Shown: piece by piece, positions 7,089 through 64,000 of the stretch
Layout of the letters: each line of letters opens with the position of its first letter
Position numbering within the stretch: position 1 is the first letter of the stretch
Origin: an uncultured Chlamydiae bacterium
GTDB lineage: Bacteria; Chlamydiota; Chlamydiia; Chlamydiales; JAJFMA01
Length of the DNA: 64,000 nt
Direction of reading: 5' to 3'
Assembly: GCA_963713615.1 (NCBI GenBank)
Contig: CAVQMM010000001.1
Location: 2,336,001-2,400,000 of the forward strand
Notes under the pieces: generated by a model
The model's input: only the letters and a program-made list of their open reading frames with translations
Database searches by the model: none
Told to the model about the DNA's origin: nothing
Translations under genes and position numbers: made by a program

Positions 7089-7295
7089 GATGAAAGGATC
7101 GATTCTTTTCGGAAAAAAGGTTACCCTTTTTGCGAGAAGGCGATTCTAGAGAGCTCAGCTGGCATGCCATTATCTGGTCTGGAGACACAGGTTTTTACCC
7201 CCTCCTAGGCCCGATATTGCAACAGGCCAAGATATCGCCCCATAGGCCTCAACCAAAGCCCTCATAATCGTATCTCGGCGCGCAGCGCTTTGGAG

Positions 7296-9178: not shown

Positions 9179-9229
9179 TTGGAGTGCGGTCGCTCGCGAC
9201 GTAAGCGTCAATTGAGGCCATCTGGCGAT

Positions 9230-11437: not shown

Positions 11438-11779
11438 GGAGAAAACTTAGAACCTCGCGGAATTACGAAAAAGGTGGCTTCAATTGACGCTTACCTCGCG
11501 ACCGCTTTGGATTTGGGTGAACTAGGCATTGCAAGAAACGTAACCTTTCGCTCTAGGGGTAACTGTGGGGGTTTAAGCCTCCAAAGAACGGTGCGCGATT
11601 CAATAGGCTCGCCCAAATCCAAAGCGGTCGCGAGCGACACGCACTCCAAAGCGCTACGCGCCGAGTGATGTAAGGACAAGCCTAAAGGGCCTACGGGGCG
11701 ATGCCCTGACCTTTACCTCCTTTGATCCTTTAGTCCATTCGCGTAAACTCTCCTTTTCCGTGATAAAAATATTTCACAG

Positions 11780-28146: not shown

Positions 28147-28585
28147 TTATATATTTCCTACTTGCATTTAAATCAAAGACAACTATATCATCATAAAAAT
28201 TTAAAAACAAGCTATTATATTTATTCTTTCTACCATCTTTATCCAAAAATATATTGATTAACAATTGTAAAAGCTTTCGTCTACCTGGCTATCTTTGACG
28301 CTTACCGTCTTATGGCAATCCTTCAGATCATCACTCGGTGCGTAGCGCTTTGGAGTCATAGGCATCAACTTAAGCAACTAACTGCGCCCTCACAATCGTA
28401 TCTCGGCGCGCAGCGCTTTGGAGTGCGTGTCGCTCGCGACCGCTTTGGGTTTGGGTGAGCCTATTGAATCGCGCACCGTTCTACGGAGGCTGCCCCCCCA
28501 CAGTTACCCCTAGAGAGAAGGGTTACGTTCTTGCAATGCCAACTTCGCCCAAATCCAAAGCGGTCGCGAGCGACGCGCACTCCAA

Positions 28586-30463: not shown

Positions 30464-30520
30464 CTCCAAAGCGCTGCGCGCCTATTTACGAAGTTAGTTG
30501 CTTAAGTTGATGCCTATGGC

Positions 30521-30598
30521 TTGACTACTCACGAAGTTATGCTGGATTTCTCAATCGAGCTCTCGTACGATGAACAAGTCGATAAGTTACGTCTGACC
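30521..30598. repeat. Palindromic element C, left end truncated
   Basis: Aligns by eye to 32855-32935. Confidence 0.6.
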
Positions 30599-37888: not shown

Positions 37889-39469
37889 GTGCATATGGCA
37901 CCTACAACACGTACTCTCCAAGATCTGATTGCCGAAAGCGCTCGTAAGGACAGCATAATCGAGCAGCTACAGAATGAGCTGACTTATCTCAAGGAGCAAT
38001 TGGATTGGCTAAAAAGGCAGGTTTTTGGACAACGTGCCGAAAAATTTGTAGACCCAGTCAACGAAAGTCAACCCTTCTTACCCGGTTTTGAACCACCTAA
38101 GAATGTGAAACCGGAAAAGAAAACAACCATTCCTGCTCATGAGCGCCGACAACTCAAGCGTACTGGTAAAGACAAAATCACACTGCCCCCAGACCTACCC
38201 GTAGAACGTCAAATAATCGATCTACCGGAATCTGAAAAGATCTGTCCTGAGACTGGTCAGCAACTGATCAAGATCGGTGAAGAAGTCAGTCAAAAACTGG
38301 CTCATAAGCCAGGAAGCTATTTTATCAAAGAAATCATCCGGCCAAAATATGCTCTTCCTCAAGACAGTGAAGGTGGAATCCGAACTGCTCCCCTTCCAGA
38401 AGGTTTGCTTACGCGTTGTCAAGCAGATGAGAGCTTTTTAGCAGACATTTTAACAAAGAAATTTGCCGACCATCTACCGCTCTATAGAATTTCAGAAATT
38501 CTTGCTAGGGAAGGAATTGGGATCAGCAGGCAAGTCCTTTGTAATTGGGTTGTACGCTGTGGACAGGCATTAAAACCTCTTCATGAGGAACTAACAAAGC
38601 AAATTTTGCAAAGCGGAAATGTGTTTATCGATGAAAGTCCTGTGGATATGCTTTCTCCGGGAAAGGGCAAAGTCCATCAAGCTTACATGTGGGTGTTGGT
38701 TGGGGGCAAACATACGAACCCAGCCTATAGAGTCTACAATTTTCGGACGAACCGCAAACATGAAAATGCCTCGGAAATACTTGCAGGGTATACCGGAGTG
38801 GTACATTCAGATAAATATGGGGCTTATATTGATCTGGCAAATAAGAAGAAAATCATTTTATGTCCCTGCTGGTCGCATATTCGCAGAAAATTCATAGAGG
38901 CGGAAACTGGAGATCCCCCATTTCGCAAATGGGTTTTACGAAAGATTCGCTACCTCTTTATGCTAGAAAGAATTGCTTGGGCACGCTCTGAAGAAGAGCG
39001 ATTACGCATACGGCAGCTGAAAGAGGGGCCGATTATAGACGAGCTAATCAACGCCATCAAAAAACGTCTATCCGAAGGAAAAGTCCTGCCTAAATCCAAA
39101 TTTCGAGAAGCTCTAGGGTATTTTTTAGGTCTGATTCCTCATCTAAAAAACTACTTAAACCATCCATACGCACGCCTAGATAACAATGTAGCCGAACGTG
39201 CAGTTCGTCCATTGGCAATTGGCCGCAAGAATTGGCTATTTATTGGCAATGAAGAAGGGGGCGAAGCCGCAGCGGTAATACTGTCTTTAGTTCAAACCTG
39301 CCGGAATCTGGGAATAAACCCTCGAGACTATCTTGAAGATGTCATGCGTAGACTAATGAGTCACAGCTCACAAAAACTTTACGAACTACTACCAGATCAA
39401 TGGGCTAAATCACAGCAGGACCCTTCTGGCAATTCTTTTGAGAATTTCAAATCGGCTGTATCCCACTAA
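37889..39469 (+). CDS. tnpC: IS66 transposase TnpC
   Basis: DHLPLYR, CWSHIRRKF, DNNVAERAVRP and C-terminal LLP motifs. Confidence 0.93.
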   Translation: MHMAPTTRTLQDLIAESARKDSIIEQLQNELTYLKEQLDWLKRQVFGQRAEKFVDPVNESQPFLPGFEPPKNVKPEKKTTIPAHERRQLKRTGKDKITLPPDLPVERQIIDLPESEKICPETGQQLIKIGEEVSQKLAHKPGSYFIKEIIRPKYALPQDSEGGIRTAPLPEGLLTRCQADESFLADILTKKFADHLPLYRISEILAREGIGISRQVLCNWVVRCGQALKPLHEELTKQILQSGNVFIDESPVDMLSPGKGKVHQAYMWVLVGGKHTNPAYRVYNFRTNRKHENASEILAGYTGVVHSDKYGAYIDLANKKKIILCPCWSHIRRKFIEAETGDPPFRKWVLRKIRYLFMLERIAWARSEEERLRIRQLKEGPIIDELINAIKKRLSEGKVLPKSKFREALGYFLGLIPHLKNYLNHPYARLDNNVAERAVRPLAIGRKNWLFIGNEEGGEAAAVILSLVQTCRNLGINPRDYLEDVMRRLMSHSSQKLYELLPDQWAKSQQDPSGNSFENFKSAVSH

Positions 39470-39987: not shown

Positions 39988-40404
39988 ATGTCCTATCTGG
40001 ATAAATTGGCTAAAGTCGAGGCACTCCTTCAACGTGCTTCCTCTGAGGGAGAACGCCATGCAGCCGAGCTTGCCAAGCAACGAATCTTAGCCAGAATTTC
40101 CGATATACACACCAGTCGGCTCATCGAGTACAAGATCTCTCTGGATAGTCCATGGAAAAGACGGCTCTTTGCAACGCTCTGCTCCAAACATGGTTATAAA
40201 ACCTATCGATATGCACGCCAAAAGCGCACTACAGCTCATGTGATGATTTCTAAAAATTTGATGGAAGAGGTGCTTTGGCCTGAATTTTTGCGGTATGCAA
40301 AAATTCTGGAAGAACTCGTCGAGGAGATCTTAAAGGACTTAACGGCCAAGATCCATCATGTGGAAGAGGAAGAGTTAGAAATTGCTGGCGAGATCGCACA
40401 TTAA
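39988..40404 (+). CDS. Passenger hypothetical protein (DUF2786-like N-terminus)
   Basis: Strong RBS AGGAGGG; DKLAKV.ALL..A..EGE..AA pattern. Confidence 0.7.
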   Translation: MSYLDKLAKVEALLQRASSEGERHAAELAKQRILARISDIHTSRLIEYKISLDSPWKRRLFATLCSKHGYKTYRYARQKRTTAHVMISKNLMEEVLWPEFLRYAKILEELVEEILKDLTAKIHHVEEEELEIAGEIAH

Positions 40405-42014
40405 GGAGGAGCAAGATTGTGTGAATAATTCCAGGGCAACCAAGCCTTGGGATCCTCTAAAGCACTTTCAGTATTCTTTTGGATTGCTGTGAGATAGTTA
40501 TAGGGATTGATCTTATTTAGAGCGCAGGTTTCGATGACACTCATCAGAATATCAGCAATTTTGGCTCCAGTTTCATTTTTGAAAAAATAGGCGTTCTTAC
40601 GGTTAAGTACGGCCCTTTTGAGTTGACGCTCGTTGTCATTGTTTGAGACTGGAACTCCAGGAATACGTAAGAACAGTGTCAGCCCCTCCCAGTGATTATC
40701 AAGATATTGAATAGCCTTCCCAAAACTGCTATTGGGCTCTATTTGCTTGGAGTCTATAAGATCTTTGCAATAGGCTCTCATTTTGTTCATGATCGGAGCA
40801 CTTTTGTCTTGATGCCACTTTAGTCTATCTTCAGGAGCCAGTCTTTCTTTTTTTGCTATTTTGTCGTTCAGAAACACTAAGTCAAAGGATGAGACTACAT
40901 TTACGCACTCATTAGGCCAGTGCGATGCAATCTCATAGAAATTACGTCGTGCATGGGCATTACAATAGGCTAGTTGAGTCGAGTAATTCTTTGGAATGTT
41001 CCTTGATAGAGCATCGCAAGCTTGTATGGGTACTGGAAGAGCCTCGTCACGCATATCTAAAAGATCTTTTAAATTTTCTCCTGCGTGCTGTCTTCCAGTA
41101 AAAAACAAGGCGATCTCTTTGTCGTGTGCTTTTCCAAGAATGCCTGTTGTGAATATTCCCTTCCTTTCTGGATTGGCTACTTCATTTTCCTTCATAAGGC
41201 TAAGCACTCTTGCTATCGTATCGTCGTTATGAAGGCATTCACAGTTGGCGGCGAGTTGGCAAAGTTCTATGAAAACGGGCTCCATACACTCTGCAACATC
41301 ATGGGTCATGCCCCAAATTTCTGTATCTGAAATAGGGTTGCCCAAAATGGTCTGTATTTGCTCTTGACGATAGAAGGGCATGCCACCGCGATATTTAAGA
41401 ATCGAGACAATAGCCTTAGCTGACTTATCGACTCTTGACTCTTTGTAAAGCTCTTCGGGTAGTCTAGCGGTGAACACCTGTTGACAAATAGGACAGCGAA
41501 GTCTTTCAGGTTTGTAAATATGCACATTTAACCAGGGTTGCCCCACAATGCGAAGCACCGTTCCGGCAGCCAGATTGAATAATTTGCCTTTATCACACGC
41601 AGGACAGGTAGAGCCCTTTTTAAGGACCTCGTGGGCTACTTTTATGAGCTGCGCTTCTTGATAATCGCTTGCTGGTCGATGCCCGTGCCCTTTTGCCGGA
41701 CCTGCATCAGAAGGCTTCTCGTTTGAAGTATCCTCAGAAGTGTTCTTCCCTTTCTCGCTTCCATTTTTTTTTGGTCGCAGTAGATTCTTTAACTTCTGTG
41801 CGCTTTCCGTCTTTATTCCGAATACAGCTTTGAGCCTTGCAATACTCAAAGACTGCTCTCGAAGAGATCCCTCCATCCATATCATTGCCCTCACAAGATC
41901 GGCAAGCAAGGGAAAATCGTCTACATCAAGGGATTGACTCTCGATCCTCTGAATGAGGGATTCAATCTCTTCTGTAGTAAAATCTATGCGTTTAGGTCGC
42001 TTTACCATCTTCAA
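40401..42014 (-). CDS. tnpC: IS66-family transposase, divergent type
   Basis: CPAC/CPIC, PFYRQE, CNAHARRNF and NNDNERQLK motifs. Confidence 0.88.
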   Translation of the reverse strand: MKMVKRPKRIDFTTEEIESLIQRIESQSLDVDDFPLLADLVRAMIWMEGSLREQSLSIARLKAVFGIKTESAQKLKNLLRPKKNGSEKGKNTSEDTSNEKPSDAGPAKGHGHRPASDYQEAQLIKVAHEVLKKGSTCPACDKGKLFNLAAGTVLRIVGQPWLNVHIYKPERLRCPICQQVFTARLPEELYKESRVDKSAKAIVSILKYRGGMPFYRQEQIQTILGNPISDTEIWGMTHDVAECMEPVFIELCQLAANCECLHNDDTIARVLSLMKENEVANPERKGIFTTGILGKAHDKEIALFFTGRQHAGENLKDLLDMRDEALPVPIQACDALSRNIPKNYSTQLAYCNAHARRNFYEIASHWPNECVNVVSSFDLVFLNDKIAKKERLAPEDRLKWHQDKSAPIMNKMRAYCKDLIDSKQIEPNSSFGKAIQYLDNHWEGLTLFLRIPGVPVSNNDNERQLKRAVLNRKNAYFFKNETGAKIADILMSVIETCALNKINPYNYLTAIQKNTESALEDPKAWLPWNYSHNLAPP

Positions 42015-43359: not shown

Positions 43360-43884
43360 CTATTTATTTTTTTTCATATTTTTACTTGTAGATTCATTTC
43401 TATCCATTAACGCTTTTTTATGTCGCAAACTTTCTTCCCCATACGTCAGTACCTCCGAAGCAAATTGATGTGCCAGTAGCTTCATAAGACTCAACTGATT
43501 AGAATACACTTCAAAATAAGTAGTATCAAAGGCTCGAATCTCTAAAATTGCCTCTTCCATATCGCGAAAAGGCTCATCCTCAGTAGAAAACTCTCGATTC
43601 CAGACCTCCCCTAAGTCATATGGTACAGCAAAAAACACGCCGCATAGAAATTGGTCGGAGTTGTTAGCAATATCAATTACTCGATTAATATCACCAATTC
43701 GCTTAGGAATCCTGCCCTGCAATCCCCACCTAAAGGCTCCATAACCGTTCAATTCGACATCAACACCGTACCATATGCATGACTCTACAAATGGTTTTAC
43801 AACAGTGATAATTTGTAAAAGTTGTTCTCCCAAACAACACACGGGATCAAGAGAAATTCGAGTTAAATATTGCGGTTTATTCAT
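43360..43884 (-). CDS. Putative immunity protein (174 aa)
   Basis: Overlaps the toxin stop codon by 8 bp; AT-rich. Confidence 0.75.
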   Translation of the reverse strand: MNKPQYLTRISLDPVCCLGEQLLQIITVVKPFVESCIWYGVDVELNGYGAFRWGLQGRIPKRIGDINRVIDIANNSDQFLCGVFFAVPYDLGEVWNREFSTEDEPFRDMEEAILEIRAFDTTYFEVYSNQLSLMKLLAHQFASEVLTYGEESLRHKKALMDRNESTSKNMKKNK

Positions 43885-46800
43885 CAGGATTCAATTTCCC
43901 CTTTCCTCTTTTTGGCGTTCCACCTGTAGGATTTGGAATCGTGGGATGATCATGGGGATTAGAATGCACTCCAGGCCTCCCATGATCAGTCCAATCTGTT
44001 GTCTTAACTTGTTGTCCATCATATCCCCATTCCCGAGTTTGGCGATATGACCCTTTACTACCTTCACGCATCCCCAACTGAGTGTGAGGTGTTTCCGCTG
44101 AAGGAATGTTCTGTCCATGTGGGTTTCTTGGTAGGGGCAACGGACGTCCTGTATTTGGACATATTGGAACGTAGAAATCCCCCTCAACGACTGAGACTCC
44201 TGGTTGCTGCGTGGCCACTGGACTTGAAGCACTTACTCCTGGTAATTCCGCAGGTATGTCGATCTCTGAGAATTTCTTATCACCTCTTGAAGATGATCCT
44301 TTTGACTCTTTGAGAATTCGGTTCGAAACCTGTGATACATCTCCTCTAAGACCTCGTGTTAGATTATGCGCGGTATATAAATATCTGCCAACAATAACTA
44401 CCTCGCGAAGAAATGGGATTTGAGCAGCTATCGACAAAGTTCCATAAATGGCTATCTCTTGCTGCTCATTACTTAGTAGATTCCATGAATACTTTGTTGC
44501 ATAATATCCTTTTTTACACCTTTCAAAGAAAGAACTCGGGCCCACCCATGCGGAGCCAGACGCAGAACGATCCCTCTCCTGATTGTTCCCTGAGGATGCT
44601 TTCACCACGCGGGAACCACCACAAAGCCGAGAGCCTGCACTCACGCCAGCCCGACTGCGGTCGTATAGGCTGGCCTCAAGCCCCCAGGGATCAAAGAGTG
44701 TTAAGGGTGAGTTGTGGACATAAGCATAGAGGTTTGGGCCATCCACAAAGCCCATAGGATCGGGGGTTAACCAACGTCCTAGGTTACGGTCGTAGTCGCG
44801 TCGACCAAACTGAAATAGGTCCGTATGCGCATCTAAACGCTTACTAGCGAATAGCCATGGGTTAGCGATTGTAGAGTACGCTTGAGCAACATTGGCGGAA
44901 TCGTAAATTTTAAGTTCCCCAAATGCACTATAACGATAGCTTTCAACGGCAATGCCTGTTTCACTGTCCACAAGGCAGCAGACGTTTCCTCTATGGTCAT
45001 GAATAGGCGCATAGACTTTCTGATTTAGCTCTAATGCAATGGCAGCGCCGAGCTCTGCTCCTTTCCCATTTCCCAGTACCCTGAGCTGAATGATATGGCC
45101 ATTCTCCATGGCTCCAATTTCCTTCTGCCCCTGATAGAGGTAGGAAGTGGTTTGAGGGTCAGACCAGCCATTAATATTCCAGGTCGAAAGAGTGCGCGCT
45201 AAACGCCTTCCGAATGTGTCGTAGCTATAAGTTACCCGCCATTTCTGGCGTTGTTCTACGGAGGTCAAGCGGTTCAGTGCGTCATAGATATAGTGGGTCG
45301 TCGTGTCAGCTTCAGTTTTTCCTATCCGATTTCCATCCAGGTCATACTCATAGCGAGCTTCTGAACAGGAGAGTGTTTGATTTAATTCATTCACAGAATA
45401 GGGTTCAGCATCTTTTTGCCGTCTGTTTTGCAAGGAATCGTAAGCATAGGTGTGTGCTAAAGGTCCCTCTTCTGCAACTAGCTGGTAGAGATCGTCATAG
45501 TGATAATGTTCTTCCGCAGAGCCAAGAGGGTCTTTCTTGTAAACGTGGCTTAGGTTGCCTACATGGTCAAAGCCATTCTCTGGAATATCTTGAGACCAGA
45601 AGGGGGTTTCTATTTTGGTATTGTGTCCTAACGCATCCCACTGCCTTGTCTGGTGACCAGCTTTCCCTATGAGCTGTGAGGCTAGTTCTCGTCCAACCAA
45701 ATCATAATCCAAGTAGGCATGTTCGTAGAGCAGACGACCTTGAGGGTCGAACCGACTCACTTTGCTAAGCTCTAGACCATGGTAGGAATATTCAATGCTT
45801 CCTAAATCGGGCAGAGTCACTTGAGTGAGGCGTTCGAGATTATCATAGCGATATCTAAAACATGTTTCGTTAGCCAATTTTTCAAAAACAAGATGGTTCC
45901 AAGCGTCATATTCACGCCTGGTGGATCTCTGTGAGCATAGGTCGGTGGTGGTAATGGGATTATTGTGCAGGTCATAAGTATAGTGATAGTCAATCGTTCC
46001 ATCCGAAGAGGTTAGCCTGGCTAGACGACCTAGCGAGTCGTATTGGTGATGCAGGGTGATGCCATCGGGTTTGGTGAGGGTTTGCAGTCTCCCCACGGAG
46101 TCGTAAGTATAGTTGGTGACTTTCGATAAAGCTCCTCCTTGCTCAGTCATTTTTAACGGACGTTGCATGCTGTCATAACACCAGCTGATGATGTAGTCAT
46201 GAGAGGGTTGTCCGAAAGTAATGACTTTTTCACGTTGCCGTACTTTCTCTCCAGCGGGGCTGTAGCAGACTTCTTGCAGAGCGGTCGTTAAGCCTTTGGT
46301 ATTACGCTTTTCGACGCATACCAAGCGGTACAAAGCATCAAAGGTTTCGACGGTCTGATTGCCAAGTGGATCTGTGGTGGTTTTTTGCAGAACTTTCTGA
46401 TTGTGGGCATTGCGATATTCATAATTATAGGCAATCTGGGTGATGTTGCCTAAGGCATCAATCTGCTGGATGGGCATGCCATGCGAGTCATAGAGTGTTT
46501 GTGTGGTACTGCAAACATTCTCCGATGAATAAACGTGTGTTTGTGTTCGGTTGCCCAATCGATCGTAAGCATAGGTCTCACGTCGCAAAATAGTTCCTGT
46601 AGCATCTTCAATGCGTGTCTCAATGACCCTATCGAGAAAATCGTATTCCTGGATTTGCGCGATGTAGTCAGGCTCGGCACTTCCAAAATACTGCCGAGTA
46701 GTCCTCAATCTTCCCAGAGAATCATAGGCGAAGGTGGATAGGCTAAATGCTCCCGTGCCCTCCTTGCGTTCATTTATTTTGCGTCCAGCGAAGTCGTACT

Positions 46801-49415
46801 CAAAGGTGGTGGAATAACCCAGAGCGTCAGTTTCCCTCGTGAGATGGGCTCCCGTATATTCCTTTTCAAGCGAGTATTGCAGAATACCCAGGCTGTCATA
46901 GGTATCGGTGCGAATCAGGCGACTAAACCCATCGTAGGTATAGTGATGACACAGTCCCTCTTTCTCCCATTTTTTTGCTAGGACTCCGTTGAGGTGATAC
47001 TGACAGCGTTCTTGGGTTCCATCGGGATAGGTGATGCAAATGGGCTGCCCCCGTACATTGTAGGAGGTGGTTGTTTTGTGCCCCTTTTGATCAATGACTG
47101 CTGTGAGCTGGTCAAGGACATTGTACTCCTTTCGAACCCAAGAGGGCTGGTATCCCTGTCCTAGTGTTGCACAGGGAGGATACTGGACCTCGATTTCTCT
47201 TCCAAACTCATCATATTTGAAGTGGGTTGTTGTCCCAGTGCCATCGGCATGTTCTGAACCGATGGAATTGTAGGACTCCACCTGAGCTATCCTGTTGCCC
47301 ACAAGGTCATAGCAATATTCTGTGATAAAGCAGGGGCCATCATCATGTTTCTCGACCCGCTTAATGAGACGATCCATCAAATCGTATGAGAAGAGCGTAT
47401 GGAATCCAGAACCCTCTAGCTTTTCACGGATTTTGTTCTTGTTTTCGTCATAGGCCATGGTGGTGGTTTGACCCAGAGCATCGGTCTGACGGATGAGATT
47501 GCGTTTGTTGTCATAGTCGAACGCTAGTGTGTAGCAAAACTGGTCGTTGGCATCGTAGAGGTCTTGGCGAATCAAGAGCTCGCTGGCGTTGTAAATGTTT
47601 TCAATGCGTCTCAGTTGTTTTTGTTCACCCGTGGTCAAGTCGAGGTAGCTTTCGATGGTTGTTTGCGGAAAACCCACGGCTGGAGCAGTAAGACGGGGCA
47701 CGATCGTAGTGATTTTACGACAGGTAACATCAGTGAGATCCTCTTGGTGCGTGCCTGAGCCATCATCGGTGATCATTTCAATGAGCAGGTGATTGGAGTC
47801 ATAAGAGCGAAATTCTCTCTGGTACCATTTTTGATGGTCTCCAAGGAGTTTGGAGGTCAGCAGGTTTGTTTCGGGTAGGTAGGCCATGGCGATGACCTTG
47901 CCATCGCTGCATTCTTCACGCACAGGAAGATTGAAGCGATCATTGGAGTAGGACATTATTCGACTGAAGCATTCGACGGGTCGATCAGGACGATGGTCCG
48001 CCCTAAGTTCAAAGCTGGCATCGTTATTGCCAGAGAGATTGCCGTAAAAGTCTTCGCTGATGAGGTTGTTGCGATCATCGTATGCTCCTACAGTGATATA
48101 TAGACAGGGATTTCTAGGAACAGGGATGAATAGGCCTTTGGCGAGTAGATTTCCTAAATTTACCCCCTCCTTGCACCAGTAATAACGCATGGTGGAGTAG
48201 TACTGATTGTGCCTCGTGAATTTATCGATCGCCACGATCCGTTTTTCGGGTGATCTAGCGTAGGCGGTACGAATGCCATGGGCATCGTAGACGTCTGTAT
48301 ACGTATCCTTGTACTCAAACCTTGCTAGGGTGATCCGTTTTTTCCTCTTAGGACCCTGGGGATAAGGAATCTGTAGATCGGACACCTTGCCATCTCCGTG
48401 GTAATTGATGTAAAGGTGATGATTCTCTGGCTTTTCGAGTTTTCGTAATTTGCAATAATACTCTGCTTCCGAATCGCTCGTCTTGTACTGATAGGTTAAC
48501 GTCACTGGCGGTCCATTAGAGGGGATGATTTGCCGAATGAATGGGCAAGGTCCTCTTTCCCCCTTCTTCTTGTTCTTGCAGTAGATCGCTTCGATGACAT
48601 AAGAAGTGGATAGGCCATTACTCGCTGTTACTTTAAAGCCATTGTCAACTTTGTCAACTTTGAGGGTATAGGTCGCCGTTCGCGTTGGTGCTTCGTATCT
48701 CAGTCAGGAGATTTCCAGAATCGTACTCGAAATACCGCTGATGACCATTGGGCTGCGATTCATGCTTCAAGTACCACGAGCTATGGTAGTGGGTATCGTG
48801 TGATAGCCAAGAGTAGGTTCGGTGGGCTCCTGAGCCAAATGACATCTCACATTGACCGAGATTGCAGCATTTAGACGTGTTGAGGCGTGGGCTGAGTCCT
48901 GTGAAATGTAGCTTGATGTTCTTAACGGTATCAGCGCCACAAATACCCCCGCCGGCATAATTGGTTTGACCATGTTTGGTGTAAATGGCTTCATCGACAG
49001 TCGCTAAAACCGCATCGCCGCCCAATGACACGCCAAGGTACTTTGTAGCGGACCCTTCTCGCTCTTCTAAGAACACTTCATAAGGTCTATCTTTGATTCC
49101 TGAAGCGGATAGTCCACTCAGTTTGAGTGGAAAATCCATGCCGAAGCCATATCCATGAGGACTATGTGTGATATACTTACTCCTAGAAGAGCTGTCATAG
49201 CAATGTGAATAAAGCAGTGCGTTAGGACCTTCTGTAGCTACCGTTGTATCGGAGAGAAAAAACTCACCTGTAATGACGTTTACACAGTCGTATACCGTGG
49301 CTAGGGGCAGCGCATCAGGGCCTAAGCGCATCTCCAAAGGTGGTTTTTCCTGAGAATATGTCGTTACAGAGCATGCCAAAAGGGCAATAAGTAGTAGACG
49401 AAGGATACGAAACAT
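43877..49415 (-). pseudogene. Rhs protein B, split by an 8-bp deletion near 48669
   Basis: ORFs 48654-49415 and 43877-48505 match the Rhs A N-terminus; TGAAGGTT present at 61336-61343 is missing here; different toxin tip. Confidence 0.88.
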
Positions 49416-49489
49416 GGCCTTACCTCCAAAATTTTTACTTTGGAGAAGCTAATTTATTTGTTGATTGATGACAAGGGATTTTTTGTGGA

Positions 49490-49535
49490 TGTCAAGGCTA
49501 AGTAGAAATAGAGACATTTCTACTTAGCCTTGACA
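49490..49535. repeat. Perfect 20-bp-arm hairpin upstream of Rhs B
   Basis: TGTCAAGGCTAAGTAGAAAT-AGAGAC-ATTTCTACTTAGCCTTGACA. Confidence 0.8.
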
Positions 49536-49619
49536 GTTATTTTTTGTGGATCTGTGTGTTATTCGATGGTGTGTGTAGCACAAGACTTCTGCAAAAACCT
49601 TATAAACTCCATTCTATTC

Positions 49620-51878
49620 CTAGGGAATGACTGCTGCGCACACCAATTCCAAGTCACTACCCTCGAGACGATAGCGCTCTCCTGTCACCGGACACTCGGC
49701 TTCACGATCATGCCCCTCAGGGAGGCTCGCAGGCAGCTCAAGACGTTCTCCATGACGGCTAACCCATCCTTCTTGACGAGCCGGGTTGCCATAAACCAAG
49801 GCATAGGACTTCACATCCTTTGTGACGACCGTACCAGCCCCCACCAAACAATAAGCGCCTAGCTCAACTCCACAAACAATCGTCGCATTCGCCCCAACAG
49901 TAGCTCCTTGACGTAAAATCGTAGGAAGAAATTCGTCTTTGCGACTCACCGCACTTCTAGGATTCAAAATATTGGTGAAGACAGCGCTAGGACCGATGAA
50001 GACATCATCTTCACAAGATACACCCGTATACAAGCTGACGTTGTTCTGAACCTTTACATTGCGCCCCAAAGAGACTCCAGGAGATATCACAACATTCTGC
50101 CCTAAATTACAGCAAGGGCCCACACTAGCGCCCTTCATGATATGACTGAAATGCCACACCTTGGTGCCTGGTCCCACTTGAGCTCCTGCATCCACCACAG
50201 CGCTAGGGTGAATGAAAGTCTCCTCAAAGCTAGGAGCATGCTCACGGCGTATAGGAAATTTGGAGGCTCCGTCGTCATCCATGCTTTGCTGCGCGGCCTC
50301 AAAAATGCGCTGTTCCACCAAGAGCTCTCTTTCGTCGTAGATGTGCTCGATGCGTTTTAAGGGCATCCTTTGACCTGTAGGGAGATCGATGTATCCCTCA
50401 ACGATGGTTTGAGGGAATCCTACAGCCCGTCCATCCAGGCGTGGAGTAATGCAGGTAAACTTCTGGCAGGTCACGCCGGTGTAGTCTTCTTTGGCTGCTT
50501 CGCAGCCATCATCCGTAAGAATTTCGACAAGAAGATGCTCTTCATTATAAGTGCGAAATTCTCTTTGGTAGATTTTAGAATGGTCTCCAGTAAGCCTAGA
50601 GGTTAGTAAGTTGGTTCCAGGTAGGTAAGCGCATTGGATGACCTGACCTCCAGTATGTTCTTCTCGGATGGGAAGATTAAAGCCATCGTTAGAATAGACG
50701 ATTAACCGCCTGAAACATTCCACGGATTCATTGGGACGATGATCGCTGCCTAGCTGAAAAGGTCCACGTCCAGAACCAGAGAGATCCCCATAAAGATCAT
50801 CCTGGATGACATTACCGAAGGAGTCGTAGCTGCCTGCATTGCAGCAGTAAAATTCTCCCTGAGAGTTCGTCACCCCTTTTGCCAGCAGGTTCCCAAGATT
50901 CTCTCCAGAGGTACCCCAAAAGAACTTTGTGGAGCAGTAGGGATGATAGTTGTTTTGATAAGTCATTCTTCCGCGACGTTGTCTAACAACGGCTCGGCTT
51001 GTCTCATACCTATCGATGGCGGTGATGCGCTTCTCTGGAGAGATGCGATAAACTGTGCGATTACTAAGCGCATCATCGACAACCGTGCTGTCATCGCTGT
51101 AGTGAAAATCTGCTATCAGCACCTCTTCTTTAGAATTCTCTTTTAGAGGTGCTTTTAAAGCATGTATTCTTCCTTCTTGGTCATTGTGGTAGTAAATAAC
51201 TAGGTAGCGGTCCTCTGGGCGCGAAATTCTTCGCAGCTTGAGATGGTACTTCTCTTCATTCTTGCCGACTTTATAGTGATAGTCTAAGCGCATCCAGGGT
51301 TGGTGAGAAGAGGTTATTTCCTTGACGAAAGATAAATGCCGGCGGAATTCGGGAGCCTTGCAGTGTTCGCCTCCGAGATGATAGCAGGTAAACTGTCCAT
51401 TGTTAGCGGATATAGTAAAATGACGGTAAGTATCCCTGCTGATGTCTGCTCTACCAAACATTAGCTTTCCCGTGGGACTCGTCAACCGTATCTTTGTTAG
51501 GAGGCTCAGGATGAAGTCGTCGTTGTACTCAAATATTCTCTGATTTCCGCCGGGTTGCAGTTCATTGTTCAGGTACCAATAGCAGTGTTCCTGTGATTGA
51601 TGAGGCAACCACGTATAGATACGCTGCATGCCTGAGCCAAAGAAGACCTGGCAGAGACCCCGATTGCGACATCTCCTCACGTTCGTTTGAGGGTTAAGAC
51701 CGGAAAATTGCAGTTTTCGATTCTTAACATGATGGGCCCCTTGAATCCCATCGCTGGAGTAATTGGTTTGTCCATATTTGGTATAGATCTCTGGATCCAC
51801 TGAGCTACTTATTGAAGTATCTGAGGGACTGAAGGGAGCTAGATAGCGCATGGAAGCCATAGGCATCAACTTAAGCAA
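49620..51878 (-). CDS. Rhs N-terminal/YD region fused to a WbpD/WlbB-type hexapeptide N-acetyltransferase
   Basis: First ~530 aa align to the Rhs A N-terminal region; C-terminus has FIHPSAVVD..VWHFSH..LGQNV..VKVQNNVS..FTNILNPRS..GNPAR. Confidence 0.85.
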   Translation of the reverse strand: MLKLMPMASMRYLAPFSPSDTSISSSVDPEIYTKYGQTNYSSDGIQGAHHVKNRKLQFSGLNPQTNVRRCRNRGLCQVFFGSGMQRIYTWLPHQSQEHCYWYLNNELQPGGNQRIFEYNDDFILSLLTKIRLTSPTGKLMFGRADISRDTYRHFTISANNGQFTCYHLGGEHCKAPEFRRHLSFVKEITSSHQPWMRLDYHYKVGKNEEKYHLKLRRISRPEDRYLVIYYHNDQEGRIHALKAPLKENSKEEVLIADFHYSDDSTVVDDALSNRTVYRISPEKRITAIDRYETSRAVVRQRRGRMTYQNNYHPYCSTKFFWGTSGENLGNLLAKGVTNSQGEFYCCNAGSYDSFGNVIQDDLYGDLSGSGRGPFQLGSDHRPNESVECFRRLIVYSNDGFNLPIREEHTGGQVIQCAYLPGTNLLTSRLTGDHSKIYQREFRTYNEEHLLVEILTDDGCEAAKEDYTGVTCQKFTCITPRLDGRAVGFPQTIVEGYIDLPTGQRMPLKRIEHIYDERELLVEQRIFEAAQQSMDDDGASKFPIRREHAPSFEETFIHPSAVVDAGAQVGPGTKVWHFSHIMKGASVGPCCNLGQNVVISPGVSLGRNVKVQNNVSLYTGVSCEDDVFIGPSAVFTNILNPRSAVSRKDEFLPTILRQGATVGANATIVCGVELGAYCLVGAGTVVTKDVKSYALVYGNPARQEGWVSRHGERLELPASLPEGHDREAECPVTGERYRLEGSDLELVCAAVIP

Positions 51879-51912
51879 CTAACTTCGTAAATAGGCGCGC
51901 AGCGCTTTGGAG

Positions 51913-53790
51913 CGGAAGTTCACCCCTGTTTTTGAAAAAAACACCTACCTAAAGTGTTGATTTTTCGACTTTTAGAGGCCTTTTCTTGTCCTGTGTTTAG
52001 TGACTACATTACTTGTGGCCACCTGGATTTGCTTTGGCATGGTAATTTGTAGAGCGCTCAAAATGTTAGTGGCCTCCTTGGAGGGGGCAGGGATCATTTC
52101 AATGGTCACCGCATCTGAGCACTTTATTGAATTTTGACATATAAGGCCTAACACTCGCAGGGCCTCTTCTGCAGTCATATTTACTTCAGCTAACCTTGAA
52201 CGCAGCTCTCTTACAATCATATGAGCCAGCATAGTGATAAATATGTGCCCCTTGGTGCTCTCTACTGTTCTTACATAAATCGGCCTGATTTCCAAAAAAT
52301 TGCTCTTGAAGGTTCTGAAATCATCCTCAACGTATTTTAGGTCTTTGTATCGTTCGAAAATTTCTAGGTCAGAAGCTTCTTCCTTACCTAATTCCGTTGT
52401 CCATACGTAACAACCGTCAAACTTAGATTTTTCTTTTAGCCGCTCCTGGTCGATCTCTAAACGTAATTGCCTTTTTTCGACGGAAACACTGACCCACTCT
52501 GCAATGCATAGTTTTTTTAGATATTGTCGTATTCGATTCTTTGCCAACACCGCTGACATTGTAGGCTTAGACTCAAGTTTTTTGTTTTCTTGATCCACGC
52601 GCCTTTGAGCGGTAGATAGGCGTTCTTCTCTTTGTGATTGGGTTTCTAAAGCACGTCCAGGATTGCGCCGATAGATGTATCTCTTGCCTTCAAGACAAAT
52701 CGATTGAAGATCTTTCGTGAATGTATCCAGACAAAGAATCTCTGCGCCTATTAGCGATTTCATCTCAGGAAGAGTCAAGGCTGTGACATATCCAAACCCG
52801 TATTCCTTTAGCAATAGCTTCTGCTTGTTCCGAATCATTCCTCTATCACCAACTAGGACAACGTTCTTGCAGCCAAATCTGGCTTTAATTTTGTCTAACT
52901 GATTTTGAAAAGTCAGAGTGTCCTGGGTATTGCCTGCAAAGGCCTCGACGGAGACTGGCATTCCATTATTGATGCTTAACAGCCCTATAACGACCTGCTT
53001 CTTTCTTTTCTTCTTGTCGCGGTTGTGTCCATAGGCAGCCAAGGCATTTTGCGTGCCCTCAAAGTATGAGCTTGTTACATCGTACCAGTAAAATTGCCCA
53101 GAATAACGCCTAAGCCTGAAAAGCGAATTCTCAATGGAACTTTGATTTTTGGCTACCCAATGCAGGCTTTGATAAAAGTCATTTTCATCAAAACCTCGGT
53201 TGAGGTTGATTATGGAGGCAATATCATAGATTAGGACCAGTCTTGCCGCCGACAGGCGAGAGCCTTGCTCAAGAATCCTTGCGAAGACAAGCCAAAGGAT
53301 AAGTTTAGCGTGGAAACTATCACCTAGGGCTTTTGTGATCCCAAGACTGTCTGCCAATTGCTTTAGAACGAACACTCCTCCAACTGATCTGCCCTGAACA
53401 ATGCTAAAACTGTCCTTGGACAAGATTGTAGGATTGTCCTTATGTTTCAGACCTAGCCTAATAGCCTCAATATCACTCTTAGAACACCCTGAAAGATTAG
53501 CCAGTGTGCGGTTTTTAACCTTTGTGCCCTCTCTATATGATTCACGAAGCAAAATAGACTCGTAAACCTTTCCAGACTTAGACTTGGACGTTGATTTTGC
53601 AATGTACATACAGTTTCCATCATATAACTGGACTACATTATACGCATAATAAATATATCTACAATATATTTTAGATGATATTTGAATAATTATTTTAGTG
53701 ACTACATTTTTTCGGAAAAATAGTGATGCAAAGCATTTATATTCATCACAATACGATCAAAGTAGTGGGGAAATTAGGGGTGAACTTCCG
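51913..53790 (-). mobile_element. IS1634-family element, copy 3 (1878 bp)
   Basis: Perfect 15-bp terminal inverted repeat; flanked by the two outer arm stubs of element A. Confidence 0.95.
51972..53609 (-). CDS. IS1634-family DDE transposase
   Basis: Same protein as 28767-30404 except K/R near the C-terminus. Confidence 0.93.
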   Translation of the reverse strand: MYIAKSTSKSKSGKVYESILLRESYREGTKVKNRTLANLSGCSKSDIEAIRLGLKHKDNPTILSKDSFSIVQGRSVGGVFVLKQLADSLGITKALGDSFHAKLILWLVFARILEQGSRLSAARLVLIYDIASIINLNRGFDENDFYQSLHWVAKNQSSIENSLFRLRRYSGQFYWYDVTSSYFEGTQNALAAYGHNRDKKKRKKQVVIGLLSINNGMPVSVEAFAGNTQDTLTFQNQLDKIKARFGCKNVVLVGDRGMIRNKQKLLLKEYGFGYVTALTLPEMKSLIGAEILCLDTFTKDLQSICLEGKRYIYRRNPGRALETQSQREERLSTAQRRVDQENKKLESKPTMSAVLAKNRIRQYLKKLCIAEWVSVSVEKRQLRLEIDQERLKEKSKFDGCYVWTTELGKEEASDLEIFERYKDLKYVEDDFRTFKSNFLEIRPIYVRTVESTKGHIFITMLAHMIVRELRSRLAEVNMTAEEALRVLGLICQNSIKCSDAVTIEMIPAPSKEATNILSALQITMPKQIQVATSNVVTKHRTRKGL

Positions 53791-55172: not shown

Positions 55173-55553
55173 TTACTCTGAACCCTTATCTTCGATCATA
55201 AAATCAAAAGCATATATTTTAATAACGCTACCGGTGGAATTGGTAATTATTTGGTAGCATTTGATTCCATCAAGATCAATGGTCATTTTTAACCATTTAG
55301 CCTTAAGAGCGTCAAGTTCATCAGATGCAGTAATGCACTCAGCTGCTAAAATGCACTCACACGTATGGATACCGAAGTTCATATGCGCGGTTAACCCATA
55401 ACATTTACCAAATTCGATGAATGAAGAAGGTCCATCGTCAGGCCAATCAATCACAAATCTAACCGTGTCGTTGTCACCTGGCCTTGATCTATCTATAGAC
55501 AGAGATTTCAGTATGGCATCATGCCAAGGTAAACTATTGAAATCATATTTCAT
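55173..55553 (-). CDS. Putative immunity protein (126 aa)
   Basis: ATGA overlap with a hidden toxin-tip frame; F.SL.WHDA N-terminus; AT-rich. Confidence 0.75.
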   Translation of the reverse strand: MKYDFNSLPWHDAILKSLSIDRSRPGDNDTVRFVIDWPDDGPSSFIEFGKCYGLTAHMNFGIHTCECILAAECITASDELDALKAKWLKMTIDLDGIKCYQIITNSTGSVIKIYAFDFMIEDKGSE

Positions 55554-55806: not shown

Positions 55807-56343
55807 CTAATGGTGATGATAGACAGTTCTGTTCCCGCTTGGTTCAGCAGAGCTGGTGCTGCTGCTGCCACTTCGATCAGAATCTTCTCTGCTTGCGGAC
55901 CTACAACCGACACTAGCTCTTGCATGCACTCCAGCCCTATCGCGGTCGTATAAGTTAGCCTTCAGCCCCCAAAGGTCCAAAAACATCAGAGGGCTGTTGT
56001 GGACATAGGCATAGAGATTAGGCCCATCAGCGTAGCCTTGAGGGTCGGGAGTCAACCAACGCCCTAGATTACGGTCGTAGTCGCGTCGACCAAACTGAAA
56101 TAGGTCCGTATGCGAATCTAAACGCTTACTTGCAAAGAGCCAGGGATTGCCAACCAAGGATTGGTCTAAAGAAGCGCCTTGATGGTCATAAAGACTGAAT
56201 TCATCAAAGGCAGTATAGCGATACCCTTCTACAACGTTGCCGGTTGTACTGTCTATCAAACAGCAAACGTTGCCGCGATGGTCGTGGATGGGTGCATAGA
56301 CACGCCCACCGAGTTCTAAAGCGATAGCAGCTTTTAATTCCAT
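55807..56343 (-). pseudogene. Orphan Rhs core end
   Basis: Nearly identical to 57195-57715 up to TVYHHH, then a stop codon. Confidence 0.82.
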
Positions 56344-56591
56344 TCCTTCTGGAGCCTGAGCTCTACAAACAATTTCGGAATTTCTAACGCTTCTCCATTA
56401 CTGAACTCAACTAAATATAGTATGGATTGCATTGGTTGATCAAAAGCTTCGGATACTTGTGCAGATTCAATATTGCGAATACCACAAATACAGCCAATCT
56501 GACCGGGTTTGTAACGCTTAGGAGCATTGTGTCTAACCAGTATCGTATCTCCCCAACTAAGAATAGGATCTAGTGATTTATCGAAAGCCAT
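56334..56591 (-). CDS. Putative immunity protein for Rhs A (85 aa)
   Basis: Overlaps the Rhs A stop by 22 bp; AT-rich. Confidence 0.72.
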   Translation of the reverse strand: MAFDKSLDPILSWGDTILVRHNAPKRYKPGQIGCICGIRNIESAQVSEAFDQPMQSILYLVEFSNGEALEIPKLFVELRLQKEWN

Positions 56592-59500
56592 GGTGTGCCA
56601 TCTGGGTTAATGATTCCTGGAACGTGAGCATGTGGTTGCAGCGAACGCCGGTCAATATGACCCGGAGGACTATGACGACCATCTTTCCGCAAACCTGTTG
56701 GATTGCCTATATGGTCCCTGACTTGTACCCATTTACCATCCGGCGAGCCCGTTAAGTGTTCTCCCACTCTTACCGGTATAGTATTTCCGTTAGAATCCAC
56801 AATCATTACATCTATGGTGACGTTGCCGTTAAAGGGATTGGTGTTAGTTTGTGTTCCATTCCTGATAGGAATACCCGCCACGGATTCTGTTCTTTCGGCA
56901 ACTTGCCCACATTCTATCGAATTGCGGAAAACAGTTCTAGGAGAGTCAACCTTTGGAGTTTGTTGGATAGTTCTAAGGGCGATCCCCGTGGTTACTCGAA
57001 CCGGTGCAGCTACAAGGCGAAGAGCCGGAAAAGCCAACGCCGCCGAACACATTATGTTTGAGCTTTCATTCAGGCATTCTAGACAAAATGTCATCCTCTC
57101 ATACTCATCCCACTGACTCCAACTACTTTTAAAGCCCCGATAGCTCCACACAGCATCGCTGACCCAACTCGTTCCATAGTCTGGCGAGTTGGAATGGTGA
57201 TGATAGACAGTTCTGTTCCCGCTTGGTCCAGCAGAGCTGGTGCTGCTGCTGCCGCTTCGATCAGAATCTTCTCTGCTTGCGGACCTACAACCGACACTAG
57301 CTCTTGCATGCACTCCAGCCCTATTGCGGTCGTATAAGTTAGCCTTAAGCCCCCAGAGGTCCAAAAACATCAGGGGGCTGTTGTGGACATAGGCATAGAG
57401 ATTAGGCCCATCAGCGTAGCCTTGAGGGTCGGGAGTCAACCAACGCCCTAGATTACGGTCGTAGTCGCGTCGACCAAACTGAAATAGGTCCGTATGCGCA
57501 TCTAAACGCTTACTTGCAAAGAGCCAGGGATTGCCTACCAAGGATTGGTCTAAAGAAATGCCTTGATGGTCATAAAGAATGAATTCACCAAAGGCAGTAT
57601 AGCGATACCCTTCTACAACGTTGCCGGTTGTGCTGTCTATCAAGCAGCACACGTTGCCGCGATGATCGTGAATGGGTGCATAGATTTGCCCACGGAGTTC
57701 TAAAGCGATAGCGGCGCCTAGTTCCGCTCCTTGTCCGTGACCCAATACACGCAATTGATCGATATGCCCCTCACGAAGCATGCCAATCTCTTTTTGCCCT
57801 TGATACAAGTAAGAGACCGTTTCAGATTCGTTCCACTCACCATTCCAGGTACAAAGGGTTCGCGTCAGGCGTCTGCCAAACGCATCATAGCTGTAACGAA
57901 CTTGCCAAGCGTTTGGCTGCTCAGCAACAACCAGGCGATTTAAGGCATCATAGACATACTGGGTTGAGGCTTGCGGCGCATCCTTTCGGATGCGATTACC
58001 ATTTAAGTCATATGCATAGCTGGTCATTGAATCCGATGTAATCTGGTTTAAGCCATTCACTGCATAGGGTTGCATGTCCTTTTGAAGGCGATTTTGCAGC
58101 GAATCATAAGCATACGTATGCGTCAAAGGTCCATCTTCACCGATTAGCTGATAGAGGTCATCGTAGTGATAATTCTCAGTAATCGCTCCAAAAATGTCTT
58201 TCTTGTGAATACAACGCAGATTTCCCACGCCGTCGTATCCATCTGGAGGAATTTGTTGAGACCAAGCCTTGGTGATGATTTGAGTGTTACGTCCAAGAGC
58301 ATCCCACACGCGTTGCTGCTGACCTGCCGACCCGATCAGCTGCGCAGCAAGTTCACGTCCAGCCAAATCGTAATTCAAATAATGATGCTGATATTGAGAG
58401 TTCCCCTGAGTATCGTGTCGATCAATGGTACGGATTTCAAGGCCATTGTAGGTATATTCAATGCTCGAATGGTCAGGCAGAGACATGTTTGTTAGACGGC
58501 CTAATGAATCATAGGCATAGTGACAGATCATGCCATTCGCCAATTGATCGCTCACCATACGGTTCCAGGGATCGTACTGACGCCTGGTGGTGAGTTGGGT
58601 TGTTAGATCCGTCGTTTCAATCGGGTTGCCATGCAGGTCATAAACATAGCGATACGCAAGAGTATTGTCTGAGGAGGTGAGGGTCGCAAGTCGTCCTAGG
58701 GCATCGTAGGTGTGGTGCAAGGTAACCCCATCGGGCTTGGTGAGCTCTGAAAGGCGTCCATAGACATCGTAGGCATAGCTCGTGGCTTTGAAGAGCGCAT
58801 CGCCCTGCTCAAGCATTGTTAGGGGACGCTGCATGCTGTCGTATTCCCAGCTCACGATGTAGTCTCGGGAGGGCGTACCAAAGGTAATCACTTTCTCGCG
58901 CTGGCGGATTTTCTGCCCAACAGAATCATAACAGACTTCTTGTAAGGCTGTGGTAAGGCCTTTGACATTGCGTCTTTCGACACAGGCGACACGATGCAGA
59001 GCATCATAGGTCTCCACAGTCATGTTACCCAAAGGATCCGTGGTGGTTTTTTGCAGAACTTTCTGATTGTGTGCATTGCGATATTCATAATTATAGGCAA
59101 TCTGGGTGATGTTGCCTAAGGCATCAATCTGCTGGATGGGCATGCCATGCGAGTCATAGAGTGTTTGTGTGGTACTGCAAACATTCTCCGAAGAATAAAC
59201 GTGTGTTTGTGTTCGGTTGCCAAGTCGATCAAAGAGGTGGGTTTCTTTACGAAGGATTTTTCCTGAGGAGTCTTCAATGCGTGTCTCAATGACCCTATCG
59301 AGAAAATCGTATTCCTGGATTTGCGCGATGTAGTCAGGCTCGGCACTTCCAAAATACTGCCGAGTAGTCCTCAATCTTCCCAGAGAATCATAGGCGAAGG
59401 TGGATAGGCTAAATGCTCCCGTGCCCTCCTTGCGTTCATTTATTTTGCGTCCAGCGAAGTCGTACTCAAAGGTGGTGGAATAACCCAGAGCGTCAGTTTC

Positions 59501-62293: not shown

Positions 62294-63772
62294 CTAGGGA
62301 ATGACTGCTGCGCACACCAATTCCAAGTCACTACCCTCGAGACGATAGCGCTCTCCTGTCACCGGACACTCGGCTTCACGATCATGCCCCTCAGGGAGGC
62401 TCGCAGGCAGCTCAAGACGTTCTCCATGACGGCTAACCCATCCTTCTTGACGAGCCGGGTTGCCATAAACCAAGGCATAGGACTTCACATCCTTTGTGAC
62501 GACCGTACCAGCCCCCACCAAACAATAAGCGCCTAGCTCAACTCCACAAACAATCGTCGCATTCGCCCCAACAGTAGCTCCTTGACGTAAAATCGTAGGA
62601 AGAAATTCGTCTTTGCGACTCACCGCACTTCTAGGATTCAAAATATTGGTGAAGACAGCGCTAGGACCGATGAAGACATCATCTTCACAAGATACACCCG
62701 TATACAAGCTGACGTTGTTCTGAACCTTTACATTGCGCCCCAAAGAGACTCCAGGAGATATCACAACATTCTGCCCTAAATTACAGCAAGGGCCCACACT
62801 AGCGCCCTTCATGATATGACTGAAATGCCACACCTTGGTGCCTGGTCCCACTTGAGCTCCTGCATCCACCACAGCGCTAGGGTGAATGAAACCCTCCTCA
62901 AAGCTAGGAGCATGCTCACGGCGTATAGGAAATTTGGAGGCTCCGTCGTCATCCATGCTTTGCTGCGCGGCCTCAAAAATGCGCTGTTCCACCAAGAGCT
63001 CTCTTTCGTCGTAGATGTGCTCGATGCGTTTTAAGGGCATCCTTTGACCTGTAGAGAGATCGATGTATCCCTCAACGATGGTTTGAGGGAATCCTACAGC
63101 CCGTCCATCCAGGCGTGGAGTAATGCAGGTAAACTTCTGGCAGGTCACGCCGGTGTAGTCTTCTTTGGCTGCTTCGCAGCCATCATCCGTAAGAATTTCG
63201 ACAAGAAGATGCTCTTCATTATAAGTGCGAAATTCTCTTTGGTAGATTTTAGAATGGTCTCCAGCAAGCCTAGAGGTTAGTAAGTTGGTTCCAGTGTTTG
63301 CGGATATAGTAAAATGACGGTAAATATCCCTGCTGATGTCTGCTCTACCAAACGTTAGCTTTCCCGTGGGACTCGTCAACCGTATCTTTGTTAGGAGGCT
63401 CAGAATGAAGTCGTCGTTGTACTGAAATATTCTCTGATTTCCGTCGGGTTGCAGTTCATTGTTCAGGTACCAATAGCAGTGTTCCTGTAATTGATGAGGC
63501 AACCACGTATAGATACACTGCATGCCTGAGCCAAAGAAGACCTGGCAGAGATCCCGATTGCGACATCTCCGCACGTTCGGTTGAGGGTTAAGACCGGAAA
63601 ATTACAGTTTTCGATTCTTAACATGATGGGCCCCTTGAATCCCATCGCTGGAGTAATTGGTTTGTCCATATTTGGTATAGATCGCTGGATCCACTGAGCT
63701 ACTTATTGAAGTATCTGAGGGACTGAAGAGAGCTAGATAGCGCATGGAAGCCATAGGCATCAACTTAAGCAA
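62294..63772 (-). pseudogene. Second, damaged copy of the Rhs::acetyltransferase fusion
   Basis: CAA>TAA at 63602-63604; in-frame 780-bp deletion at 63294/63295; acetyltransferase domain intact. Confidence 0.85.
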
Positions 63773-63796
63773 CTAACTGCACCCTCACAATCGTAT

Positions 63797-64000
63797 CTCG
63801 GCGCGCAGCGCTTTGGAGTGCGTGTCGCTCGCGACCGCTTTGGATTTGGGCGAAGTTGGCATTGCAAGAAACGTAACCCTTCTCTCTAGGGGTAACTGTG
63901 GGGGGGGGGCAGCCTCCGTAGAACGGTGCGCGATTCAATAGGCTCGCCCAAATCCAAAGCGGTCGCGAGCGACACGCACTCCAAAGCGCTGCGCGCCGAG
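63797..64000. repeat. Palindromic element A, uninterrupted copy
   Basis: Perfect 57-bp arms around a 90-bp core with a G run; outer repeat at 63752-63778. Confidence 0.93.

Follow-up and report, generated by a model that had tools for sequence, protein, structure and literature searches.

A probable chimeric remnant of Rhs gene duplication that joins Rhs sequence to a sugar N-acetyltransferase in a chlamydia-like genome

The window considered here is a 64,000-nucleotide (nt) stretch of contig CAVQMM010000001.1 (positions 2,336,001 to 2,400,000) from an uncultured Chlamydiae bacterium, and it carries a long open reading frame (ORF) in which part of a divergent Rhs paralogue, designated RhsX, runs into a sugar N-acetyltransferase. 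An earlier inspection of the sequence (the original prediction) had described about 530 Rhs-like residues continuing without a stop into a complete acetyltransferase, a description with which the ORF, the alignments and the Pfam search all agree. The frame is composed as follows.

49620..51878, minus strand: copy 1 of the chimeric ORF, 752 codons (752 aa) with a TTG start, made of the end of an insertion sequence (IS), an RhsX fragment, and the linker and acetyltransferase half of a parent gene
51854..51878, minus strand: the TTG start and first seven codons, inside the terminal bases of the IS, with an in-frame TAG directly upstream
50311..51853, minus strand: RhsX fragment, equivalent to Rhs residues about 122-624
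50303..50310, minus strand: recombination junction, a GCGCATT microhomology common to RhsX and the parent followed by one diagnostic base
49620..50302, minus strand: duplicate of the final ~226 codons of the parent, comprising the end of an oxidoreductase domain, the linker and a complete left-handed beta-helix N-acetyltransferase

Residues 8-531 of the frame align with residues 122-628 of the intact Rhs protein of 1839 aa whose gene lies nearby (235 of 530 positions identical, 44%, E 2e-136). Pfam nevertheless recognised only hexapeptide families in the 752-aa ORF, at approximately aa 556-687 (PF00132, 7.6e-18; PF14602, 1.4e-12), and the RHS_repeat/YD shell (PF05593), which both neighbouring Rhs genes match at about 1e-47, was not matched. 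The DPxG core-end motif, present as PDPQG at aa 1554 of the intact Rhs, was likewise not found in the ORF, as had been noticed before. The native Rhs N-terminus and signal peptide are missing too, the alignment beginning at Rhs residue 122, and this gap is explained by an IS.

51854..53790, minus strand: IS that truncates RhsX, with a 545-aa DDE_Tnp_1 transposase at 51972..53609

Three copies of this 1.94-kb element lie in the window (7240..9200, 28563..30522 and 51854..53790; 98.5-99.8% identical). The sequence common to them extends to 51854/51857 and their flanks diverge past that point; therefore the TTG and first seven codons of the chimera are IS sequence. Because the end of the IS precedes Rhs homology that starts only at residue 8 of the chimera, the first ~120 Rhs residues and the signal peptide are absent.

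The source of the acetyltransferase half was located in the same genome. An intact fusion gene of 552 codons (552 aa; G000:C1:2436026-2437684, corresponding to L002 1498..3156(-) and L018 8727..10385(-)) lies 36 kb past the end of the window and matches GFO_IDH_MocA (PF01408, 2e-21), GFO_IDH_MocA_C (aa 174-335) and Hexapep in Pfam. This parent contains the linker EAAQQSMDDDG, which the original prediction had rightly likened to the last helix of a Gfo/Idh/MocA oxidoreductase. The accompanying idea, that the dehydrogenase half of a WbpB-WbpD-type fusion had given way to Rhs DNA, is borne out by near-identity over 691 nt, with chimera nt 1569-2259 matching the parent at 99.86% at the DNA level. 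The NAD-binding Rossmann domain PF01408 was found neither in the 752-aa ORF nor in the 426-aa ORF of a second copy described below. When the parent was compared with the solved WlbB chain 3mqg_A (192 aa), its acetyltransferase half aligned over residues 5-185 of the chain (E 6e-67); the acetyltransferase part of copy 1 is nucleotide-identical to that of the parent. Upstream of the parent are genes for a DegT/DnrJ/EryC1 aminotransferase (WbpE-like) and a UDP-glucose/GDP-mannose dehydrogenase-family protein (WbpA-like), and a set of WbpA, WbpE and fused WbpB-WbpD is that of the UDP-ManNAc3NAcA pathway as described in PMC10622841. Directly downstream is an Rhs gene of the main family, interrupted by another IS. 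The Wbp-type neighbourhood occurs only at the parent gene, the chimeric copies having an IS or Rhs debris on their upstream side and an Rhs gene downstream. Both the oxidoreductase half and the adjacent aminotransferase occur once in the genome. In contrast, the 3′ part encoding the acetyltransferase is present in five copies, and a search of the genome with the last 216 residues returned five strong acetyltransferase matches and one weak LpxD-like match.

Three of these five copies are chimeric. The original prediction had the fusion occurring twice, and a second copy does lie in the window, but it is damaged, and a third is found elsewhere in the genome.

62294..63778, minus strand: chimeric copy 2, with the same junction, a 780-bp deletion and a nonsense codon; its longest ORF is 426 aa (62294..63574)

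Copy 2 is identical to copy 1 at 329 of the last 332 residues. Its deletion removes 260 codons in frame (equivalent to 50621..51400, with a 5-nt overlap at the ends), its nonsense change is CAA>TAA at codon 57, and on its 5′ side the same 28 IS-end bases are followed by a variant IS-end-like repeat. Copy 3 (G000:C1:2426704-2427576) keeps RhsX from nt 1387 only, approximately 61 Rhs codons, and is joined upstream to a stretch similar to the C-terminal tip of Rhs gene A, the Rhs gene downstream of copy 1. The fifth copy (G000:C1:3070936-3071368) consists of 433 nt of acetyltransferase sequence between an epimerase-like gene and a main-family Rhs gene, and retains only residues 70-216 of the 216-aa query. 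Indeed, all five genes of the main Rhs family, whose members are 83-100% identical over aa 1-950, have an acetyltransferase piece ~200 nt upstream: three chimeras, one fragment and the one intact parent. The statement that the fusion stands upstream of each Rhs gene thus holds for the main family, in the sense of such a piece, but not for 10 further, distant Rhs loci (28-51% identity), at which a genome-wide search found no adjoining acetyltransferase.

The joint itself falls at parent residue 327, within the GFO_IDH_MocA_C match. The seven bases GCGCATT (window 50304-50310) are common to chimera and parent; at base 50303 all three chimeras have T where the parent has C, and the sequences are identical beyond. 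Over the last 691 nt, copies 1, 2 and 3 show 1, 3 and 2 differences from the parent, respectively, and the fifth copy shows none in its 433 nt; copy 1 shows no difference across 49620..50302, its single difference being the junction base. At the protein level the parent reads RVMRILEAAQQSMDDDGASK and the chimera LLVEQRIFEAAQQSMDDDGASK, with EAAQQSMDDDG preceded by RVMRIL in the former and by LLVEQRIF in the latter; the corresponding DNA is GTCATGCGCATTCTTGAGGCC in the parent and GAACAGCGCATTTTTGAGGCC in the chimera, and the main Rhs family has LLIRQDLYDANDQ at the equivalent position. Because the junction string is identical in all three chimeric copies, it is considered to have a single origin. 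Judging from the main-family sequence, RhsX probably read R-I-F-(D/E)-A at the joint, in the same frame as R-I-L-E-A of the parent, and a reading frame shared in this way would account for the in-frame joint.

An error of assembly could produce such a junction in a repeat-rich genome that is probably metagenome-derived, and the region does abound in IS copies and in repeats that are 96-100% identical. Part of the stretch was recovered from 20 public runs (soil and peat metagenomes), the best of which held a 0.34 share of the sampled words and none of which reached half. The eight runs that were mapped yielded short, low-depth contigs, from which copy number and expression level are unreadable, and uncovered parts, such as 50618..51139 in runs X1-X4, carry no information. 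However, the check that had been proposed, for reads across position ~50300, gave a positive result at the level of contigs: X20, an RNA library of another study, yielded a 182-nt contig (record 2; 50246..50427) that bridges the junction with 64 nt on one side and 117 nt on the other, and its one difference matches the allele of copies 2 and 3. Contigs from X7 and X2 also cross, although they extend just 26 and 10 nt into the acetyltransferase, and another metatranscriptome contig covers the 3′ end of the acetyltransferase. A contig from X4, by contrast, ends at 50310 and continues into the parent's oxidoreductase sequence (as the reverse complement), so that both forms exist in nature. Since the chimeric and parental joints are both seen in DNA or RNA from the environment, assembly did not create the joint. 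The assembly, moreover, contains the junction three times in three different upstream contexts. An assembly error is accordingly a highly improbable explanation.

The 752-codon frame is very probably a chimeric remnant, likely a non-functional joint rather than a new functional architecture, and is most likely an ordinary, decaying by-product of Rhs gene duplication and array turnover. Both of its halves are truncated copies, the parent being intact elsewhere and the Rhs part being cut at both ends relative to relatives of 1.6-1.9 k aa. Its sister copies (copies 2, 3 and the fifth) carry independent disabling changes, and its substitution pattern, in a small sample, is neutral. Of the two origins offered originally, a new architecture or a recent deletion product, a product of rearrangement is favoured and a new architecture is disfavoured, but the recency is not supported.

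In the mechanism that we propose, one illegitimate recombination mediated by the microhomology would have joined RhsX at codon ~526 to parent codon 327. This event was probably a tandem duplication with one end in the middle of the parent and the other in that of a downstream RhsX. Such a duplication would leave the parent whole and create exactly one RhsX-5′::parent-3′ joint, where the second unit begins. As the parent is still whole, the dehydrogenase half was replaced in a copy. The unit formed by the acetyltransferase 3′ half, the intergenic hairpin and Rhs could then have spread by homologous recombination or gene conversion, and later unequal exchange, IS insertions and deletions would have led to the present four to five units and the copy at 3.07 Mb, while the RhsX part drifted neutrally. 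Alternatively, the same joint would result if a deletion followed an earlier duplication.

Against this stands the view that the chimera is a working gene, whose Rhs-derived N-terminus gives the acetyltransferase a new location, partner or substrate. In its favour are a frame open through all 752 codons with a complete acetyltransferase domain and the RNA-library contig across the junction. Selection on the Rhs half, which had been suggested as a check, argues the other way. Within the 5′ 483 nt of RhsX, 11 nonsynonymous, 3 synonymous and 1 nonsense change separate copies 1 and 2, and from the 14 substitutions other than the nonsense change dN/dS is 1.02, with a value of 0.1 rejected (p 7e-5). 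A working gene is also at odds with a start that lies in the IS end with no native start or signal peptide, with an Rhs piece cut at both ends that has neither a YD-repeat Pfam match nor the core-end motif, and with sister copies that are differently deleted, one of them bearing a nonsense codon.

The distribution of the architecture points in the same direction. Among 40 related genomes, a fused oxidoreductase-acetyltransferase of 529-575 aa was the best match in nine (G001, G002, G005, G006, G011, G026, G028, G032 and G037), and G004 has a weaker fused match of 516 aa. All 10 orthologous loci are colinear with the whole parent protein, no Rhs start was found in their downstream flanks (at most 1.5 kb), and the relatives are 57-72% identical over the chimera's last ~226 residues. 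RhsX-like N-terminal regions in these genomes belong mostly to long Rhs frames (about 1270-1930 aa among the stronger matches), shorter frames giving weak or fragmentary matches only, and no RhsX-like place overlaps a strong acetyltransferase match. Similarly, in a 5.8-billion-cluster protein collection the best 120 of 6077 acetyltransferase matches (413-1316 aa) comprise 119 Gfo/Idh/MocA plus hexapeptide proteins and one DegT plus hexapeptide protein, and among these 120 none has the acetyltransferase without an N-terminal enzyme domain. Matches come from sources named Parachlamydia, Chlamydiales and Parachlamydiales, and the fused type bears names such as 'Gfo/Idh/MocA family oxidoreductase [Parachlamydia]' and 'UDP-2-acetamido-3-amino-2,3-dideoxy-glucuronate N-acetyltransferase'. 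The parent is itself held there, from the same contig (P0002, 543 aa), and the listings that hold it have no entry for the 752-aa frame. Searching the collection from the Rhs side over the same length range returned two matches, both Rhs fragments without Hexapep, and among proteins of more than 1316 aa the single acetyltransferase match lacks RHS_repeat. The proposed search for further Rhs plus hexapeptide fusions thus returned none from the 40 relatives or the protein collection, no exhaustive profile search of the architecture having been made. By sequence comparison, the oxidoreductase-acetyltransferase is the normal, common architecture, with one intact copy in this genome. Taken with the selection data, this leaves a working chimeric gene an improbable explanation.

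The extra copies might instead serve acetyltransferase dosage, raising the amount of enzyme either through the chimera or through an internal start, with the Rhs part passive. The acetyltransferase part is well kept, with 0-2 differences per 683 nt among the four full copies, and an in-frame ATG stands at residue 533 of the chimera, six codons past the junction. However, the near-identity (99.6-100%) covers equally ~310 nt of RhsX upstream of the junction, the non-coding spacer and more than 1.3 kb of Rhs. Because non-coding DNA and RhsX share it, the identity points to recent copying, gene conversion or concerted evolution of a long tract, not to selection on the enzyme. The fifth copy, as described above, is partial, and the nearest GAGG lies ~14 nt before the ATG, a poor spacing, so that inspection of the sequence revealed no convincing ribosome-binding site for the internal start. 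Furthermore, the enzyme is a fused oxidoreductase-acetyltransferase in the parent and in all 10 relatives. A role in dosage is therefore unlikely.

A further reading, to which we give little credence, is that the chimera is expressed and that the copied block (acetyltransferase 3′ half, intergenic hairpin and ribosome-binding site) is a portable 5′ expression module of the main Rhs family, the chimeric protein perhaps being a working acetyltransferase with an Rhs-derived N-terminal extension. Were this so, the duplicated Rhs genes would owe their expression to transcription and translation through the chimeric frame. A scan of 49300..52100 found one promoter-like site against 3.3 expected, no evidence of a promoter for the chimera or for Rhs, and two terminator-like sites against 2.5 expected.

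Several points weigh against the interpretation of the frame as a decaying by-product of Rhs duplication. The open frame and complete acetyltransferase domain of copy 1 have already been noted, and with an acetyltransferase identical in sequence to that of the working parent, copy 1 might still yield a stable, active product. The chimera may also be transcribed, as the RNA-library contig suggests, although such libraries can hold DNA and this one had no silent control stretch. The dN/dS estimate rests on a mere 15 differences in 483 nt between two copies, a small sample. The simplest tandem-duplication model expects an intact distal RhsX, or its 3′ remainder, at the array end, and it is not found there: at the DNA level the best genomic match was 200 nt at 74.5% to the main Rhs family, and at the protein level the best match reached only 44-47%. 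Finally, gene conversion blurs the age of the event, and 'recent' is not supported as dating.

Several known systems resemble the chimera in part. Chimeric 'novel joint' ORFs arise at the boundaries of tandem duplications, and the present case shares with them an intact parent and a single joint at a short microhomology, repeated at the head of each later unit; here, however, the expected intact distal RhsX is missing, and the duplication route is one that we infer. The chimera's last ~226 residues copy the C-terminal part of this genome's member of the fused WbpB-WbpD type found in environmental chlamydiae, but the PF01408 half is replaced by an Rhs fragment and the Wbp neighbourhood stays with the parent. 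WlbB/WbpD is the N-acetyltransferase of the UDP-ManNAc3NAcA pathway (PMC10622841), and the chimera appears from its sequence to contain the same left-handed beta-helix domain, fused rather than stand-alone as in the 192-aa WlbB (3mqg_A). Rhs polymorphic-toxin loci are described as diversifying by recombination with downstream cassettes (PMC3482391), and chlamydiae are among the holders of RHS toxins in the tables of that source. Like such loci, the chimera lies in a duplicated, recombined array of Rhs genes, orphan C-terminal fragments and IS elements. The usual exchange concerns C-terminal toxin tips, whereas here it involves the 5′ side of Rhs and an unrelated housekeeping-type sugar gene; YD shell, core-end motif and toxin are all absent from the chimera.

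The finding is chiefly useful for annotation: neither the 752-aa nor the 426-aa frame should be given the name of a new Rhs-acetyltransferase architecture or be counted as an extra Wbp enzyme, and the working gene is the 552-aa parent, which lies beyond the window. In addition, the locus offers a clean, datable example of Rhs-array growth in an environmental chlamydia-like genome, in which one microhomology joint was propagated with Rhs through four to five units and a second locus, and in which IS elements and deletions erode the copies. Beyond these two uses, no open question is changed.

The remaining features of the array are the two neighbouring Rhs genes and the spacer that precedes the first of them.

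43877..49415, minus strand: Rhs gene A, downstream of copy 1, split into frames of 253 and 1542 aa
56570..62089, minus strand: Rhs gene B, an intact gene for an 1839-aa protein, immediately downstream of chimeric copy 2
49416..49619, minus strand: intergenic stretch from the acetyltransferase stop to the Rhs start, with a hairpin and a GGAGG before the Rhs ATG

Relative to gene B, gene A has 8 bp deleted near codon 250 (window 48640..48680) and is either a frameshifted pseudogene or the product of a sequencing error. The intergenic stretch is identical in four of its five copies, the 3.07-Mb copy being gapped (23 and 27 gapped columns in two 100-column bins). Its hairpin (49490..49535) has a perfect 20-bp stem, with CCACAAAAAAT on both sides, is conserved in all five copies and scores as a terminator on the plus strand only. 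No toxin or immunity family was recognised by Pfam in any of five pieces, namely the C-terminal tips of the two Rhs genes (43877..44650 and 56570..57301) and the small ORFs that follow (43360..43884, 56334..56591 and 55173..55553), which may represent undescribed toxin and immunity domains. The 3.97-Mb genome contains at least 15 Rhs loci (five of the main family and 10 distant) and many orphan C-terminal fragments, a large share for a chlamydia-like genome.

Other mobile sequences in the window include IS66-family transposase genes at 37889..39469 (plus strand) and 40401..42014 (minus strand). A repeat of ~170-240 bp with internal inverted repeats occurs at 63738..64000, 28343..28585 and 11495..11665 (91-96% identical); part of it is related to the IS end, and the repeat could be a derivative resembling a miniature inverted-repeat transposable element (MITE). 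In the protein collection, the acetyltransferase of P0124 (1374 aa, from another source) is WbpD-like (66% identity over 73% of the query part) and shares the protein with Flg_new, NAGPA and Bsp-repeat (surface-repeat/glycosidase) domains, an unusual surface-protein context for the enzyme. Elsewhere in the genome, an asparagine-synthase-like gene on the minus strand (L018 14793..16717; G000:C1:2442092-2444016) consists of two overlapping frames, one of 414 aa (GATase_7 and the start of Asn_synthase) and one of 310 aa (the rest of Asn_synthase), a split that may reflect a frameshift.

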